DNA from: Candidatus Latescibacterota bacterium
GTDB lineage: Bacteria; Latescibacterota; UBA2968; UBA8231
Assembly (NCBI GenBank): GCA_965215195.1
Contig: CBDCDC010000002.1
Coordinates: forward strand, 2,752,001 to 2,816,000
DNA length: 64,000 bases
Direction: 5' to 3'
A program made the translations under genes and the position numbers. The notes below the pieces were generated by a model. That model saw nothing but the letters and a program-made list of their open reading frames with translations, was not told the origin of the DNA and searched no databases. Positions 53,602 to 59,528 of this stretch are shown piece after piece (the first letter of the stretch is position 1; the number at the start of each line of letters is the position of its first letter).

Positions 53602-54450
53602 ATGGATTCAACCTGCCTGCAATACACCTTGACCGAGGAGGAGAGCCGCCGCTTTGCCGAGGACGGCTTCTTCATCGTCCGCGATGTGCTGCCCTTGGAT
53701 TTAGTAGATAAGCTCATCCCGGTCGTCGATCGCCTCGATGCCGAGTACCGGCTGCAAAAGGGGCTAGAAAAGCACCAGATGCACAACTTGTTCGACTTTA
53801 TCGGCAAAGATGCACTCTTTCTGGAATTGCTTGACTGGCCCAAGACATTCGCCAAGGTTTTTGGGATTTTGGGCTGGCATATCCAGCTTTACCACTCGCA
53901 TTTGATCGTTACTCCGCCTTTAGACGGCGTCGTGCCCCAACGCAAGCGGCTGGGCTGGCACCAAGACAGCGGGCGGCTCAACATCGACTTGGAGACTCAG
54001 CCCCGGCCGAGGGTCTCGCTCAAGGTGGCGTATTTTCTCACGGACTGCACCCAGACCCATCGCGGCAACTTCCACGCCGTACCCGGCTCGCACCTGAAAA
54101 ACGAGCTAAAAATGCCAGCGGACGAGGACTTGGACCCAGCGGGCGCAAGGCCGATCCAAGTGGCAGCCGGGGACGCGGTGTTTTTTGACCGGCGAATCTG
54201 GCATGCAGCCGGCCACAACTTCTCGCCCGACGCACGCAAGGCCCTGTTTTACGGCTATAGCTACCGCTGGTTGCGGCCACGCGACGACATGACGGTAGAG
54301 CACCTGCTGGACCGCTGCGATCCGATCCGGCAGCAGCTACTTGGTGCCGGCCCGAGCGGCGGGCACGGCTACACCTCGCCAAAAGAAGAAGACGTGCCCC
54401 TGAGAGCGTGGATTCGCGAGCATTTGGGTGAAGAAGCAGTGGTGCAATAA
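53602..54450 (+). CDS. PhyH-family dioxygenase
   Basis: FAEDGF, WHQD, VPGSH and GDAVFFD..IWH motifs. Confidence 0.88.
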   Translation: MDSTCLQYTLTEEESRRFAEDGFFIVRDVLPLDLVDKLIPVVDRLDAEYRLQKGLEKHQMHNLFDFIGKDALFLELLDWPKTFAKVFGILGWHIQLYHSHLIVTPPLDGVVPQRKRLGWHQDSGRLNIDLETQPRPRVSLKVAYFLTDCTQTHRGNFHAVPGSHLKNELKMPADEDLDPAGARPIQVAAGDAVFFDRRIWHAAGHNFSPDARKALFYGYSYRWLRPRDDMTVEHLLDRCDPIRQQLLGAGPSGGHGYTSPKEEDVPLRAWIREHLGEEAVVQ

Positions 54451-54496: not shown

Positions 54497-57400
54497 CTAA
54501 CCCACCGGCAGTCCGACAAAGAGCCGGCTGGACACGCTGCTCAGCGGCTCAACTTCGCCGCGCTCGGCCGCCCTAGCAAAGACTACGCCCGGCTGCGCGG
54601 CCCGAGCGGCCCGGCCCAAGACGTGATAATCGGCCCGGCCGGGCTGTTGGGCCGCTTCCCGCGCCTCGCTCCAGCCCTCGTTGGTGGCGGCCAGACCCCA
54701 CAAGGCACGCGGTGCCCGCACCTTGGCCTCCTCCACCGACAGGCCATCGCGCCAACAACCGCGCTGGGCGAACAAACTACCATCTTCCCGACAGATCAGC
54801 CCACCACCCACGTATTGGATCACCTGCTGTTGGTTGCCTCGCGCCCCCGATAGCGTCAACAGGGCTAGGGGCCCCAAGTCGTTGTCGGCGAAATCGGCCT
54901 GCTGGTAGAAAGCCGCCACTAACTCGTCGCTGTACATTTGCCACTCGTCCCCATGGACCTCTTTGGGTTGCTCTGGCCACTCCTTGCCCGAACCGAGGAA
55001 GGGGTTGAAGGAGGCCCCTGACTGCTTGCAGACCTCAAAGCCGCGCCGCGTCAGCCGGTCGAGTACATCCAGCGCTCGCTCCAAACCCTCGCGCTGCAGC
55101 ACCTGAGCGAGCAAGCGATTGAGATCGCGCTTGGTGAACAGCCGGCTGCCATCCACCGCCATTCCGGTCAGCCCCTCCACTTCGGCACGGCCTTCCTCCG
55201 TGCGACACAGCCGCGCCAAGCCCCATGTCATGCCGTGATAGTTGTCGGCCACGTAACGCCAGACATCCGCATCGCGCTGGATGTGTCCGGCCACCGACAG
55301 CGCGGTCTCGGCTTCGGCCTGGGCTTCCTCGGTGAGGGGCAAAAACACCTCGATGGAGTCGCCGTCGAAATCTAGCTCCATTAGTCGGCAAACGCGCGGA
55401 TGGACGCGCACTGCGGCCCCGGCCAAGCGCTGCGGGCGAAAGGCCACCACTGCGGTGGACATTGGGCCTTCGTCAACCAGCATCCGCTGGGCGCTGTACA
55501 GCAGCACCCACGAGCGCGCCATGATCGCGTCCAGAGCCTCAGTCGCCCGGGCCGAGCACCGCACCACTTCGTCGGCGCGACCTATCTCCCGCTCCACCTG
55601 AGGCCCGAACAAAGCCCAAGCCATTTCTTCGGGCAGGCCCACTTGGTCGAGATTCAGCTCAAATCCCGAGACGAGCGCGGCCCGGCCGCTAAACAGCGGT
55701 CTGGCCCGGAAGTGAAGGTGGTCCGGGCGCAACAACGCGGCGAAAAAATCCGCCACCCGCTGGGCCACTCGGGCCATTGCCGGTCCGACTAGGGGCTCCG
55801 GGGCCTCGCTGTCAACGACGCGCTGCAAGCGCGTATTGGCTTCGACCAAATCCTCGAAGCAGCCTCGGATTGGGTCGAACTCGGTTTCCGCGGGCAAAGC
55901 GACGGGAGCGCCCACCGTCCCCACTTGGCGTCCCGGAGCCCACGGGTGCGGCACGGGCTGGGCTAGGGTCAGCCCCTCGGGCTCGGCAAAGGAGAAGCGC
56001 AACGTTGCACTCGCTAACTCGGCTCGTATCCCGGCCATACCCAACAACTGCTGTAACAAGGCAAAGCGCGGGGATGGTGGGGGAGACGGGGATATTGGGC
56101 CAGAGGTCAAGTGCTGGCCCAGCGCATGGGCGTCGGCCCGCTCGGCCGCGGCCGTGTTGAACAAAGCGTGGATATTGGCTACGGCCCCGGCCTCGCACAA
56201 CGCTCCGTAGGCCATCATGTCGAGCTCTGGTCCGCCGACTCCTGCGACCGCAGTTTCCAAGCGCTCGGCCGCGGTGTGGGTGCGGCCCCAGTACACCCAA
56301 CCCACAGTGCTGCGATAGGGCAGCTTTGCGCCTTGGAGGGTCAGTTGCTCCATGCCGTCTCGGGGCAGTCCCGCCGCCGCCAGACGCGCTTTTAACGTCT
56401 CTTCGCTGGGTGCTCGAAAAGGCGGCACCACGGCCGGAGTCCCTTCGGCTTGGGCGAGGCGGCCCATGACTGCCTCGCGCTGTTGGCCGAAATTGAGCCG
56501 CGAGATCATACTGGTAGGACTGAAAATGAGTTCTAGCGGTGCCCCATCGGGCAACTGCGGCATATCGGCGTCGGGCAGGATGCGCGTCACCACCCCTTTG
56601 GCGCCGTGGCGGTTGCTCATGCGGTCGCCCACTCCCACTGCGGCGGGAAAATCCATCCGCGCCGCGGCCGATTCGCTGATGACCAAGCCATCCTCAAACG
56701 TGTCTCCGTCCCACATGATGAAGGCGGTCAGCAGATTGTAGCCACCCCAAAAGTCGGGGGCTTCGGGCTCGTACCCGGTCTGTACTAGGGCTGGCTCGGG
56801 TTTGTTGCCCTTGGAGGCCAAGCGCTGATCGTACTGCTGGCGGAACCAGCCCGTGGAGTGGACCGGTGCCCCTGTAGCGGCCGCGCTCGTCCACTGGCGC
56901 ATCATATTGACGCCCATCAGGGCGCGATTGGTATCGTCGTGTTCGAGGAAGGGGACCATGGAGGCCGAAAAACCCAAAATGCTGTCGGGCGCTGGGTCGA
57001 TCCGTTCGAGCTTGCCGTCGCGGATGCGGGCCCCGCGGGCGACTTCGAGTACGCGGCCGATATTGGGTCCCTCGGGGGTGCAGTAGGGGCATACTAGGCC
57101 GTATTGGCTGTAGGGGAAAACGTCTTGGCTGTCAAAAGACGCGACGACCAGCCGCCGCAGATGGGTATAGCGGTCGAGCCAGTTGGTCGCCTGTAGGTAC
57201 TGCGAGGTTTCCTCCAAGTGGAAGTCGCGCATCCAAGCGTCTAGCGGCAGCCAGTTGTGCACCAAGTCGCCGTCCCAAGCCAACTGCTCGGGGGCCGCCT
57301 CCAACCTCTGGTCAATAAAATCGCAGAGCTGCTCGCCCACGCACAGAATTCGCGCTTGCTCGAGCTCGCGCCGGTCGGGATAGGGGACCACGATCCGGTA

Positions 57401-57637
57401 GTTGCCCTCAATGCGGAAAAGGCCATCGCGGTCGGGCCGCGGCAGGTCGCGGTACTCAACCTCGACCGAGGCGTCGCCGAGTCCCAAGCTCAGTTTAATG
57501 GAAAAAGTATAAGGGCCCTGTTGTTCGACTTGATAGTCGGCCAGCGGCAGGCGCTTACCCAAGAGCCGGGGCAGTCGCTGGTGGACGAAAAGGTCAAAGG
57601 ACTCCCTGTGCCAAGGTACGTCGAGATTCAATGTCAT
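54497..57637 (-). CDS. Miniaturised single-chain RNA polymerase beta-beta' fusion protein
   Basis: RpoB motifs (CPYCTPEGPNIG, PFLEHDDTNRALMG.NM.RQ, FEDG..ISE, GDRMSNRHGAKGVV) followed in order by RpoC motifs (SGR....GLP..MA..LF.P, VHP.VC...DFDGD, SGARG, AA..G..E.L). Confidence 0.88.
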   Translation of the reverse strand: MTLNLDVPWHRESFDLFVHQRLPRLLGKRLPLADYQVEQQGPYTFSIKLSLGLGDASVEVEYRDLPRPDRDGLFRIEGNYRIVVPYPDRRELEQARILCVGEQLCDFIDQRLEAAPEQLAWDGDLVHNWLPLDAWMRDFHLEETSQYLQATNWLDRYTHLRRLVVASFDSQDVFPYSQYGLVCPYCTPEGPNIGRVLEVARGARIRDGKLERIDPAPDSILGFSASMVPFLEHDDTNRALMGVNMMRQWTSAAATGAPVHSTGWFRQQYDQRLASKGNKPEPALVQTGYEPEAPDFWGGYNLLTAFIMWDGDTFEDGLVISESAAARMDFPAAVGVGDRMSNRHGAKGVVTRILPDADMPQLPDGAPLELIFSPTSMISRLNFGQQREAVMGRLAQAEGTPAVVPPFRAPSEETLKARLAAAGLPRDGMEQLTLQGAKLPYRSTVGWVYWGRTHTAAERLETAVAGVGGPELDMMAYGALCEAGAVANIHALFNTAAAERADAHALGQHLTSGPISPSPPPSPRFALLQQLLGMAGIRAELASATLRFSFAEPEGLTLAQPVPHPWAPGRQVGTVGAPVALPAETEFDPIRGCFEDLVEANTRLQRVVDSEAPEPLVGPAMARVAQRVADFFAALLRPDHLHFRARPLFSGRAALVSGFELNLDQVGLPEEMAWALFGPQVEREIGRADEVVRCSARATEALDAIMARSWVLLYSAQRMLVDEGPMSTAVVAFRPQRLAGAAVRVHPRVCRLMELDFDGDSIEVFLPLTEEAQAEAETALSVAGHIQRDADVWRYVADNYHGMTWGLARLCRTEEGRAEVEGLTGMAVDGSRLFTKRDLNRLLAQVLQREGLERALDVLDRLTRRGFEVCKQSGASFNPFLGSGKEWPEQPKEVHGDEWQMYSDELVAAFYQQADFADNDLGPLALLTLSGARGNQQQVIQYVGGGLICREDGSLFAQRGCWRDGLSVEEAKVRAPRALWGLAATNEGWSEAREAAQQPGRADYHVLGRAARAAQPGVVFARAAERGEVEPLSSVSSRLFVGLPVG

Positions 57638-58258
57638 TCGCGTTCCTCCGGGTTATTAATAGCCTGCCAGGCTCGTGCGATCTGGCGGCGGCCGTGGTGC
57701 AGACGCGACTTTACAGTGCCTTCGGGAATGCCCAGTCGCTCGGCCGCGTCCCGCACTTCGACTTGGGCGTCGTAGATCAGACGGAAAACTTCGCGCTTGT
57801 CCTCGGACAACTCTTGTACTTGTCGCCGCAGCCAGCGCTGCTGGTCAGCCCATTCCACTTGGGCGTCGGGGTGCTCAGACGCAGCCTCAATCATCCACTC
57901 GGGCACTTGCTGCAATCATCCACTCGGGCACTTGCTGCGCCTCCTGCTGCACGGTTTCAGACAGCATTTCCAGCCGCTGCTCCCGCCGCCGCCGCACGGT
58001 GCGCAGGTGCGTCAGGGAAAGATGAGTGGCAATGCGGAACAGCCAGTTAGCCGCAGAGCCTCGACCGCTCCATTGGCCGGCCCGGTTCCACACTCGCAAG
58101 AAAACCTCCTGCACTACATCGTTAGCACTCGCATCGTCGCGGACGATGCAGCGCACGCGGTGGTGGACCTGCGCCCGATAGCGCTCAAAGAACTGCTCGA
58201 ATGCGCGTGCATCGCGTTCTTTTATTCGCGCTATGAGTTGTGGGTCCGGTATCTGCAT
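57634..58258 (-). pseudogene. ECF sigma-70 factor, frameshifted by a 25-bp tandem duplication
   Basis: Region 2 (DVVQEVFLRVW, WLFRIA) and region 4 (LGIPEGTVKSRLH) are in different frames; CAATCATCCACTCGGGCACTTGCTG is repeated at 57888 and 57913. Confidence 0.88.
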
Positions 58259-58278
58259 TGAGGCCCTCTGCAGATAAA

Positions 58279-58304
58279 GACGCCGCCCGGAAGGCATAGG
58301 TTCA
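58279..58304 (-). promoter_or_regulatory. ECF-type promoter TGAACC-N16-CGTC
   Basis: Minus strand reads TGAACC tatgccttccgggcgg CGTC, about 20 bp before the sigma ATG. Confidence 0.7.
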
Positions 58305-58418
58305 AGGACGAAGGTGAAAAAGCCCGCAAACCGCATTGGAGGCTGGCTTTGACTCACTAGTCGAGGGCGGTATCTTACCACCCATCGCCTCGGTGCTCTT
58401 GCGCCAGATCGAGACCCC

Positions 58419-58628: not shown

Positions 58629-59528
58629 ATGATTCCGACTATCACCCTGCGACAAAAAGTAATAGAAGGGGGCCAAAAAGGCCCCAACCTGCTGCTCTTG
58701 GGCGGCGTCCACGGCGACGAGTTCGAGTCTATGGCGGCCATCCGCCGCCTGCTGGACCACCTCGACCCAGCGGCCTTGCGGGGCCGCCTCACGGCCATCC
58801 CGGTAGTCAACGAAGCCGCCTATTGGCGCGGCCAGCGCACGGCCGAAGACGGGCTGGACTTGGCCCGCACCTGCCCGGGCCGGGCCGATGGCTCAATCAC
58901 CGAGCGCACGGCTCACGCCGTCAGCGAGGAAATCCGCCGGGCCGACTATCTCATCGACCTGCACAGCGGCGGGTTGGTCATGGAATTCTACCCGACCGCG
59001 GGGTACACCCTGCATCCCGATAAAGCCATCCTCAATGTGCAACGGCGCATGGCCCGAGCACTGAATATGCCCATCATCTGGGGCACCTCGGCCCGACTTG
59101 ACGGACGCACGCTTTCAGTGGCCCGCGACGCCAATGTGCCGGCCATGTACGCCGAGTGGATGGGCGGTGGCACATGCGACCCTCGAGGGGTGGATGCTTA
59201 TTTTGCGGGCTGCTTGAACGTCTTGGCCGAACTGGGCATGATCGACCGCACCTTGCCGCCCCGGCGCACCGAGTACACCGTGGAGGACGACCGCGACAAT
59301 GCTGGCCATGTGCAGCTCAATTACCCGGCGCCCTTTGCCGGTTATTTTGAGCCCCAAGTAACACTGAAAGCGCTCGTGCAACCGGGCGACGCGATCGGCA
59401 CGGTGGTCGATCCTCTGGGGCAGCGGCGCGAGGAAGTGGTATCGACCGAGGCGGGCTTGATCCTGTGTCTGCGGGTCTTCAACCGCGTCCACCAAGGGGA
59501 CAGCTTGGCCGCGGTTTTGGAACTATGA
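58629..59528 (+). CDS. Succinylglutamate desuccinylase/aspartoacylase (M14) family
   Basis: GGVHGDE, DLAR..PG and IDLHSG motifs; C-terminal biotinyl-like domain. Confidence 0.88.
   Translation: MIPTITLRQKVIEGGQKGPNLLLLGGVHGDEFESMAAIRRLLDHLDPAALRGRLTAIPVVNEAAYWRGQRTAEDGLDLARTCPGRADGSITERTAHAVSEEIRRADYLIDLHSGGLVMEFYPTAGYTLHPDKAILNVQRRMARALNMPIIWGTSARLDGRTLSVARDANVPAMYAEWMGGGTCDPRGVDAYFAGCLNVLAELGMIDRTLPPRRTEYTVEDDRDNAGHVQLNYPAPFAGYFEPQVTLKALVQPGDAIGTVVDPLGQRREEVVSTEAGLILCLRVFNRVHQGDSLAAVLEL

Follow-up and report, generated by a model that had tools for sequence, protein, structure and literature searches.

Some reduced two-barrel RNA polymerases (RNAPs) of phages use a dedicated subunit for promoter specificity. 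For YonO, the RNAP of Bacillus prophage SPbeta, the published description reports an enzyme without trigger-loop homology that extends RNA as efficiently as Escherichia coli RNAP, shows little pausing, and works with lower accuracy and without cleavage; it also records that flap, lid, rudder, zipper, and lobe can each be dispensed with in vitro when conditions are mild (PMC5467207). Here, we analyzed a stretch of 64,000 nucleotides (nt) from a Candidatus Latescibacterota bacterium (assembly GCA_965215195.1, contig CBDCDC010000002.1, forward-strand positions 2,752,001 to 2,816,000; hereafter "the window") that encodes, in a single polypeptide of 1046 amino acids (aa), the core of both large RNAP subunits. 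Based on sequence comparisons and structure models, we hold with reasonable confidence that this protein, which we call mini-RNAP, is a sigma-dependent accessory RNAP that shares an operon with its own dedicated sigma factor of the extracytoplasmic function (ECF) class. All positions given below are those of the window, and all residues are those of the 1046-aa open reading frame (ORF). A first-pass annotation, made by a model from the sequence and a list of its ORFs, had dealt with positions 54600..56720, equivalent to residues ~307-1013, and had proposed that the protein retains the clamp helices and metal site of RNAP but has lost flap and trigger loop, so that it may bind sigma and metal but be slow or non-processive.

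A strongly reduced polymerase of bacterial type

Mini-RNAP carries three Pfam core domains of two-barrel RNAPs in the order Rpb2_3 (residues 146-205), Rpb2_6 (335-452), and Rpb1_2 (729-780), and none of the remaining Rpb1/Rpb2 domains, Rpb1_5 included, matches at E ≤ 1. The NCBIfam models of bacterial rpoB (TIGR02013) and rpoC (TIGR02386) score 157.2 and 84.7 bits, respectively, against equivalog cut-offs of 801.15 and 963.5, and the archaeal models are weaker (77-99 bits on the rpoB side and 23 bits on the rpoC side). Taken together, these results identify mini-RNAP as a strongly reduced single-chain beta-beta' fusion of the bacterial type, and since both equivalog cut-offs are missed and several defining modules are lacking (see below), it is not an RpoB or RpoC. 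The protein is derived from bacterial beta and beta' by fusion of the beta C terminus to a truncated beta' N terminus and by deletion of ca. 60% of both subunits, so that one chain of 1046 aa stands in place of the 1342 + 1407 aa of the E. coli subunits. An AlphaFold model of the whole chain reached a mean predicted local distance difference test score (pLDDT) of 91.4 and a predicted template modeling score (pTM) of 0.88, and a second model that covers residues 520-1046 (m207ea289cca8) reached a pLDDT of 86.1.

All hallmarks of a two-barrel core are present in this chain, i.e., a beta' barrel with DxDxD, a beta barrel with an acidic pair and a basic motif, and a bridge helix. Using a profile built from 61 family members (A1), we mapped mini-RNAP onto E. 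coli beta and beta' (from NC_000913). In the beta-like half, profile blocks fall on beta 119-146 (weak), 496-580 (with a 12-residue gap at fork loop 2), 649-706, 788-823, 1055-1143, and 1177-1342, the last of which ends on the final beta residue; the block alignment to beta scores 66 bits. Structural alignment of this half to beta/Rpb2 chains with VIA-align gave Z scores of 28-30 at a root-mean-square deviation (rmsd) of 2.5-2.9 Å over 450-517 residues, and the matches include a Mycobacterium tuberculosis ECF sigma-H complex. For the beta'-like half, the blocks fall on beta' 101-134 (weak), 267-514, 564-639 (weak), and 718-804, of which block 267-514 comprises the clamp helices together with the NADFDGD motif and a part of switch 2, with E. 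coli residues 317-341 absent from the alignment. The model of residues 520-1046 superposes on E. coli beta' with a Z score of 28 and an rmsd of 2.7 Å over 488 of its 527 residues (model positions 23-527 on chain positions 16-1358), and the bridge helix is modeled as one continuous helix of 29 residues (968-996) that hhalign also recovers (probability 96.5, E 8.3e-10). Mini-RNAP thus keeps both metal-binding barrels, a reduced clamp, parts of switch 2 and of the fork, the fork/Rif region, the switch-2 arginines, and the F-loop.

Residue conservation was counted over 178 members of the family. The Asp triad of the metal site is DDD in 161 of them, and the beta-side residues are similarly well kept: the acidic pair has E in 160 and D in 170 members, while in the basic motif residue 339 is K in 146 and R in 30, R343 is found in all 178, H344 in 173, and K347 in 168. 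PEGPN, SGR, and NRHG.KG are conserved motifs that contact nucleic acids. The first-pass annotation had observed that NADFDGD has become ELDFDGD and that GDK has become GDR; both changes are indeed present (residues 754-760 and 337-339), but sequence comparison marks them as variants of a clade, and the family consensus is still NADFDGD and GDK. The two commonest forms of the metal motif are NADFDGD (48 members) and ELDFDGD (45 members). The replacement of NRAP by YSAQ at residues 714-717 covaries with the change from N to E at residue 754 (R with N in 70, R with D in 26, and S with E in 55 members), though these counts are not independent events because the S-and-E set is essentially one clade, namely that of the window, to which the coupled replacement is restricted.

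A conserved clamp hairpin among lost modules

The clamp helices, which in the first-pass annotation had been aligned by eye to the beta' clamp coiled coil, fall into the same register in the family profile, where residues ~583-635 match E. coli beta' 267-309 with NTRLQR on NNRLKR and EAP on AAP, within a domain alignment of 115 bits (independent E-value 2.3e-37) that extends to NADFDGD. Both AlphaFold models show two long helices in this block (585-609 and 614-635, pLDDT 86-96) with a turn of four residues between them, and their DSSP assignments together with the global fit to beta' suggest that the helices pack antiparallel. Residues N601, R603, and P613 are nearly invariant and L616 is invariant.

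On the beta side, the ISE motif ends at residue 322 and GDR starts at residue 337, and the 14 residues in between, which replace E. coli beta 824-1054, leave no room for a flap domain. The loss of the flap is therefore borne out, also by the jump of the profile from beta 823 to 1055 and by the superposition of the beta half without any extra domain, though the distance of about 12 residues given at first pass is not. Similarly, no trigger loop was found in mini-RNAP by Pfam, the profile, structural alignment, or hhalign, in agreement with the earlier view, and just 50 residues follow the bridge helix. By hhalign, residues 1019-1042 weakly match beta' 1331-1354 (E 0.26), which agrees with the end point of the structural alignment at beta' 1358 and suggests that residues 1016-1046 correspond to the C-terminal conserved region of beta' rather than to the trigger loop; residues 997-1015, which precede this segment, could be assigned to no element of beta'. 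Two candidates for remnants of this element were rejected. PGVVFARAA (1016-1024), considered by eye as a first trigger helix, was set aside on the grounds of the same structural end point and hhalign match. A Smith-Waterman match of residues 1004-1037 to the trigger-loop tip, which we treat as chance, was reached by 23 of 300 shuffles for the E. coli sequence and by 3 of 300 for the organism's own RpoC and is absent from hhalign; the pairwise resemblance of residues 1004-1014 to the loop tip is, by these shuffles, not significant.

The segment that replaces the beta' N terminus contains, by eye, no cysteine in its translated residues 520-590, and H564 is the sole conserved Cys or His of this segment in the family alignment, as expected from the earlier remark that no N-terminal beta' zinc finger is visible; the profile match in the N-terminal part of beta' is limited to the weak block at 101-134. 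E. coli stretches without a counterpart in the profile are beta ~147-495 and beta' ~135-266, 317-341, and ~806-1317, which we take to comprise the lid region, jaw/SI3, the rudder with the start of switch 2, and the greater part of both lobe and protrusion. All of these, together with part of fork loop 2, are losses beyond those named at first pass. A flap or trigger loop in a structural alignment, or a clamp segment that does not model as a coiled coil, had been set out as grounds to abandon the earlier proposal; the alignments returned neither module, and the clamp segment was modeled as a two-helix hairpin.

Pairing with a dedicated ECF sigma factor

Directly upstream of mini-RNAP, on the same strand, lies a sigma factor gene with the Pfam domains Sigma70_r2 and Sigma70_r4_2, i.e., with regions 2 and 4 only in ca. 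200 aa, as defines the ECF class. Both halves of this gene exceed the cut-off of 42.9 bits of the sigma70-ECF model TIGR02937 (51.2 and 46.1 bits). Its intact orthologues in relatives have a single frame of 192-206 aa, and the sigma proteins form a tight family in which the linker motif VPxWMID is almost invariant. The pairing was compared across 80 related loci, retained from a search of species-representative genomes that confirmed 200 of its 243 candidates. Among these loci, 75 have a same-strand upstream sigma gene with both domains, two have one with a single domain, and three have none, and two of these three contigs end without upstream DNA. In the window, the sigma stop codon overlaps the polymerase start codon (ATGA), and such a stop/start overlap is found in 23 of the 62 loci in which the sigma gene is called as an ORF. 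The neighborhood comparison of the loci detected no other gene beside sigma that is common to the clades and, in particular, no conserved anti-sigma gene.

A perfect tandem duplication of 25 nt interrupts the sigma gene in the window assembly and shifts its frame within the VPxWMID codons. Contigs from all four public runs that we compared (three studies) lack these 25 letters at position 57888, including one that is 99% alike and has a depth of 388, though minority variants could be hidden. Because these contigs omit the 25 nt and because both halves are in frame in close relatives, the frameshift most likely reflects an error of the assembly or a variant private to this genome rather than a trait of the lineage.

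Upstream of the sigma gene, the pattern [TCG]GAAC-N16-G[CT]GTC is found in 59 of 62 loci across phyla, always with a spacer of 16 nt, and has the typical shape of an ECF promoter. When the beta' half was predicted in complex with an intact orthologous sigma factor, the score was 0.45 against 0.00 for the best control, a result classed as "weak support". Of 157 solved complexes, 116 pass the mark applied, compared with 2 of 215 mismatched pairs, but only 18 of the 157 pass it with scores of 0.60 or less, whereas both mismatches do. The three prediction runs share at least 76% of contacts, and the pLDDT of the partner is at least 65. The earlier suggestion that the protein may bind sigma and metal is thus supported by the DDD triad, the retained acidic and basic residues of the beta side, the conserved clamp hairpin, the upstream ECF sigma gene in 75 of 80 loci, and, weakly, this prediction.

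The immediate surroundings of the operon in the window are ordinary, with a convergent PhyH-family dioxygenase gene (53602-54450, plus strand) on one side and an AstE/AspA-like deacylase gene (58629-59528, plus strand) on the other and no context of mobile elements or phages. A distance of 1.25-2.3 kb separates the upstream sigma gene from the polymerase gene in 10 loci, all of which belong to one Latescibacterota subclade. Two of these loci were examined, and in both an ABC exporter gene with fused membrane and ATPase domains is located between the two (L056:4162-5958 and L069:4002-5762; there are eight sibling loci). Directly upstream of sigma and on the same strand, two genes of ~320 aa (L022:3404-4357 and L022:4306-5277) have counterparts in 15-16 loci of Latescibacterota and of that phylum only; the first of them encodes an N-terminal C4 zinc finger of the DksA/TraR type. 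The features of the operon are collected in the table below.

Features of the mini-RNAP operon (window positions; residues of the 1046-aa ORF)
Feature	Residues	Positions	Strand	Basis or detail
mini-RNAP ORF (P0001), single-chain beta-beta' fusion	1-1046	54497..57637	-	ORF list, Pfam, AlphaFold
beta-like half: N-terminal beta1 fragment, fork/Rif region, barrel with FED, beta C-terminal clamp piece	1-~545	56003..57637	-	profile blocks, VIA-align
FED, beta-side acidic pair	314-316	56690..56698	-	aligned to E. coli FED within beta 788-823
flap deletion junction	320-339	56621..56680	-	sequence; profile jump beta 823 to 1055
GDRMSNRHGAKG, beta-side basic motif of the active center (GDK..RHG.KG type)	337-348	56594..56629	-	aligned within beta 1055-1143
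beta'-like half	~546-1046	54500..56002	-	model of residues 520-1046 aligned to E. coli beta'
clamp helical hairpin, presumed dock of sigma region 2	585-635	55733..55885	-	profile to beta' 267-309, two AlphaFold models
YSAQ in place of family-consensus NRAP/YRAP	714-717	55487..55498	-	aligned to E. coli NRAP
ELDFDGD, catalytic Asp triad	754-760	55358..55378	-	aligned to E. coli NADFDGD
bridge helix, preceded by F-loop region SGARG (930-934)	968-996	54650..54736	-	profile to beta' 718-804, DSSP
C-terminal conserved segment PGVVFARAA..GE..PL..SRLFVGLP	1016-1046	54500..54592	-	VIA-align end at beta' 1358, hhalign
ECF sigma gene, split in the assembly		57634..58258	-	region-2 ORF 57887-58258 (likely ATG) and region-4 ORF 57634-57915
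perfect 25-nt tandem duplication in the sigma linker		57889..57938	-	frameshift within VPxWMID codons
ECF-type operon promoter		58273..58308	-	-35 TGAAC (58304-58300), 16-nt spacer, -10 GCGTC (58283-58279)

Distribution and cellular status

A search of representative sequences recovered 325 clusters at E ≤ 1e-30, in which members of ~1000 aa score ~500-1080 bits and the first long protein of canonical type scores 210 bits. Of the 80 loci, 75 yielded an ORF with a length of 950 aa or more, and at least seven phyla are represented; the named sources are Latescibacterota, Poribacteria, Gemmatimonadota, Hydrogenedentota, Chloroflexota, Planctomycetota, and Armatimonadota, and every source-named member in our searches is annotated as "hypothetical protein". 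Latescibacterota, Poribacteria, Chloroflexota, and Planctomycetota are among the groups in which the family is common. Within the phylum of the window, 66 of 168 genomes carry a member of the family, as do 19 of the 52 genomes of high quality and, in the same genus, 21 of 30. This patchy presence, which includes absence from several single-contig genomes, shows that mini-RNAP is accessory, and canonical rpoB and rpoC are encoded elsewhere in the same genome with open frames of 1271 and 1385 aa.

No relatives were found in IMG/VR (0 of 36 candidates). A tblastn search of 50,697 GenBank phage records gave 37 records with partial matches, none of which covers 80% of the query; among the 15 of these 37 matches that were listed, the annotated ones lie on rpoB/rpoC genes, several are unannotated, and none comes from a Bacillus phage record. 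The polymerase has no match in PADLOC, and its PHROG matches are generic RNAP families. No RNA data set that contains the gene appeared among the 21 public runs listed. Metagenomes also contain other fused Rpb2_6+Rpb1_2 proteins of 1221-2309 aa (P0260, P0265, and P0267; ESM Atlas clusters of 1221-1787 aa), some of which have the Rpb1_5 trigger-loop domain and which may represent intermediate reduced forms. Full-text literature searches, together with passages of PMC7826278, PMC2919709, PMC10770324, and 10.1101/2020.03.07.982082, returned no description of the family; Iyer and Aravind 2012 (J Struct Biol 179:299), which may bear on its novelty, and the supplements of the ECF classification lay outside the scope of these searches.

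Proposed mechanism and alternative explanations

For a sigma-dependent accessory polymerase, we propose that region 2 of the sigma factor docks on the retained clamp hairpin and that the resulting two-protein holoenzyme would start RNA synthesis at specific DNA sites. Sigma region 4 canonically docks on the flap, which mini-RNAP does not have, so that this region would need another anchor or would stay unanchored; the strongly conserved linker motif VPxWMID may contribute here. In canonical RNAP, the RNA-DNA hybrid is held by the bridge helix and F-loop together with the switch-2 arginines and the fork/Rif region, and the retention of such hybrid-holding elements favors the synthesis of chains over that of nucleotide signals; nucleotide products had been among those suggested at first pass. 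From the lack of trigger loop, lid, rudder, flap, and secondary-channel elements, we predict that mini-RNAP is insensitive to hairpin-dependent pausing and termination and to control of the Gre/DksA type and that its accuracy is lower. The enzyme need not be slow, contrary to the possibility raised at first pass, since the processivity of YonO without trigger-loop homology means that loss of trigger loop and flap does not predict a slow polymerase. Given the absence of a flap and the canonical geometry of the operon promoter, the host core with the ECF sigma factor may read this promoter, and it would probably be the first to do so, resulting in positive autoregulation.

Several observations weigh against a sigma-dependent mini-RNAP. 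The flap is missing, yet the operon promoter has the canonical -35/-10 geometry, which suits the host core no less than mini-RNAP. No target regulon is visible: a position weight matrix (PWM) built from 45 distinct promoter instances scored the operon promoter at 33.5 bits and the next best site of the window genome at 18.1 bits, with 17 sites above 13 bits and thus no second strong promoter of the operon type in this genome, while scanning 168 genomes of the phylum for the exact pattern gave 0-9 matches per genome, in the window's own genus similar to a control with the reversed pattern, and the two recurrent extra sites (in the g31 and g36 genomes) are antisense within coding ORFs. The complex prediction may have passed its mark through likeness to sigma-RNAP complexes that are already solved, and the sigma gene is frameshifted in the window assembly, though other assemblies lack the extra 25 nt. 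With regard to catalysis, 17 of the 178 members have an incomplete Asp triad (NDD in eight, DDN in four, and single cases that include YDD in P0061) and may be inactive or altered enzymes. Finally, the residues changed in YSAQ and ELDFDGD are equivalent to R425 and N458 of E. coli beta', which we assume to contact the ribose of the incoming nucleoside triphosphate (NTP); with both of these contacts replaced, the substrate may differ, and the window's clade may read the NTP sugar differently.

The alternative that survives best, though we consider it unlikely, is that the ECF sigma factor serves the host core only and that mini-RNAP is a sigma-independent effector polymerase, which might for example act on single-stranded or nicked DNA to produce primers, R-loops, or short RNAs; this is close to the idea of the first-pass annotation. 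It would account for the promoter evidence, i.e., an ECF geometry that is canonical with its 16-nt spacing at 59 of 62 loci and has no second site of the operon type in the genome, and for the loss of the flap as the usual holder of sigma region 4. In canonical RNAP, lid, rudder, lobe, and jaw handle duplex DNA and separate the hybrid, and their loss from mini-RNAP likewise fits such an effector. An effector that works independently of sigma does not explain, however, why the clamp hairpin as the dock of sigma region 2 is among the few peripheral elements that were kept and conserved, and the translational coupling of sigma and polymerase suggests that the two are made in matched amounts. The complex prediction, with its weak support for sigma pairing, points the same way, and YonO shows that an enzyme without a trigger loop can be processive (PMC5467207).

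We regard it as improbable that mini-RNAP is mainly a regulator, i.e., a core mimic that sequesters the ECF sigma factor via its clamp hairpin, with a catalytic function that is vestigial. Anti-sigma genes are commonly located directly downstream of their sigma genes with overlapping codons, and mini-RNAP occupies this position with its overlapping stop and start, while no other anti-sigma gene is conserved nearby and the incomplete Asp triads described above would fit vestigial catalysis. Sequestration would not, however, maintain ca. 1000 conserved residues, which include the bridge helix, PEGPN, SGR, and NRHG.KG and, on both barrels, catalytic residues that hardly vary. That mini-RNAP is a polymerase of a phage or mobile element or a decaying paralogue is very improbable, because its patchy presence within the genus (21 of 30 genomes) and the mostly viral nature of known reduced single-chain two-barrel polymerases are countered by the lack of relatives in IMG/VR, of full-length matches in GenBank phages, and of PADLOC matches, as well as by ordinary chromosomal neighbors and by the long ORFs (950 aa or more) that 75 of the 80 loci yielded.

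A bolder version of the reading as a sigma-dependent accessory polymerase can be put forward tentatively. The ECF sigma factor and the 1046-aa chain might form a self-sufficient, promoter-specific transcription machine of two proteins in free-living and symbiotic bacteria, which would be the smallest sigma-dependent RNAP known and would do without alpha, omega, flap, trigger loop, lid, rudder, and zinc sites, with sigma region 4 placed in a new way and with the changes from R to S and from N to E in the window's clade implying an altered selectivity for substrate or sugar. If true, this would be a natural minimal engine of bacterial transcription that reveals which parts of beta and beta' have been retained by evolution, the sigma dock among them. 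The need for trigger loop, flap, lid, and rudder would become testable on one small protein pair, as would the function of sigma region 4 and the ECF linker without a flap and RNA exit channel and the operation of a second, orthogonal polymerase in a bacterial cell. A compact polymerase that can be programmed by sigma would moreover have practical appeal as a tool for orthogonal expression.

Comparison with known polymerases

Canonical RpoB/RpoC, including natural full-length beta-beta' fusions, have the same order of blocks, the same fold, and the same active-site motifs as mini-RNAP, which differs from them in that it lacks flap, trigger loop/SI3/jaw, zinc finger, lid, rudder, and most of lobe and protrusion and is an accessory gene with its own sigma factor. 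YonO is similar to mini-RNAP in overall design, as a single polypeptide of ~100 kDa with both barrels, without trigger-loop homology, and with most regulatory domains absent, but it is of phage origin and, according to its description, has few residues in common with cellular RNAPs (PMC5467207), whereas mini-RNAP is chromosomal and paired with an ECF sigma factor. Mini-RNAP, with block alignments of 115 and 66 bits to E. coli beta' and beta, respectively, is also far closer in sequence to cellular RNAP than YonO is according to its description. Orf6 of the yeast linear plasmid pGKL2 is a 982-aa Rpb2::Rpb1 fusion that likewise has the second-largest subunit at its N terminus and has ca. half of the coding sequence deleted; by its description, it differs in its eukaryotic and plasmid origin and in the absence of a sigma factor (PMC2919709). 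The gp66 protein of crAss-like phages, P23-45 gp64/gp96, and the non-virion RNAPs of phiKZ/AR9 resemble mini-RNAP as simplified two-barrel enzymes but are viral and highly diverged, whereas the mini-RNAP family is absent from the viral collections that we searched and is paired with a standard ECF sigma factor. Within the searches made, mini-RNAP is the only reduced single-chain RNAP that we found in such a pairing.

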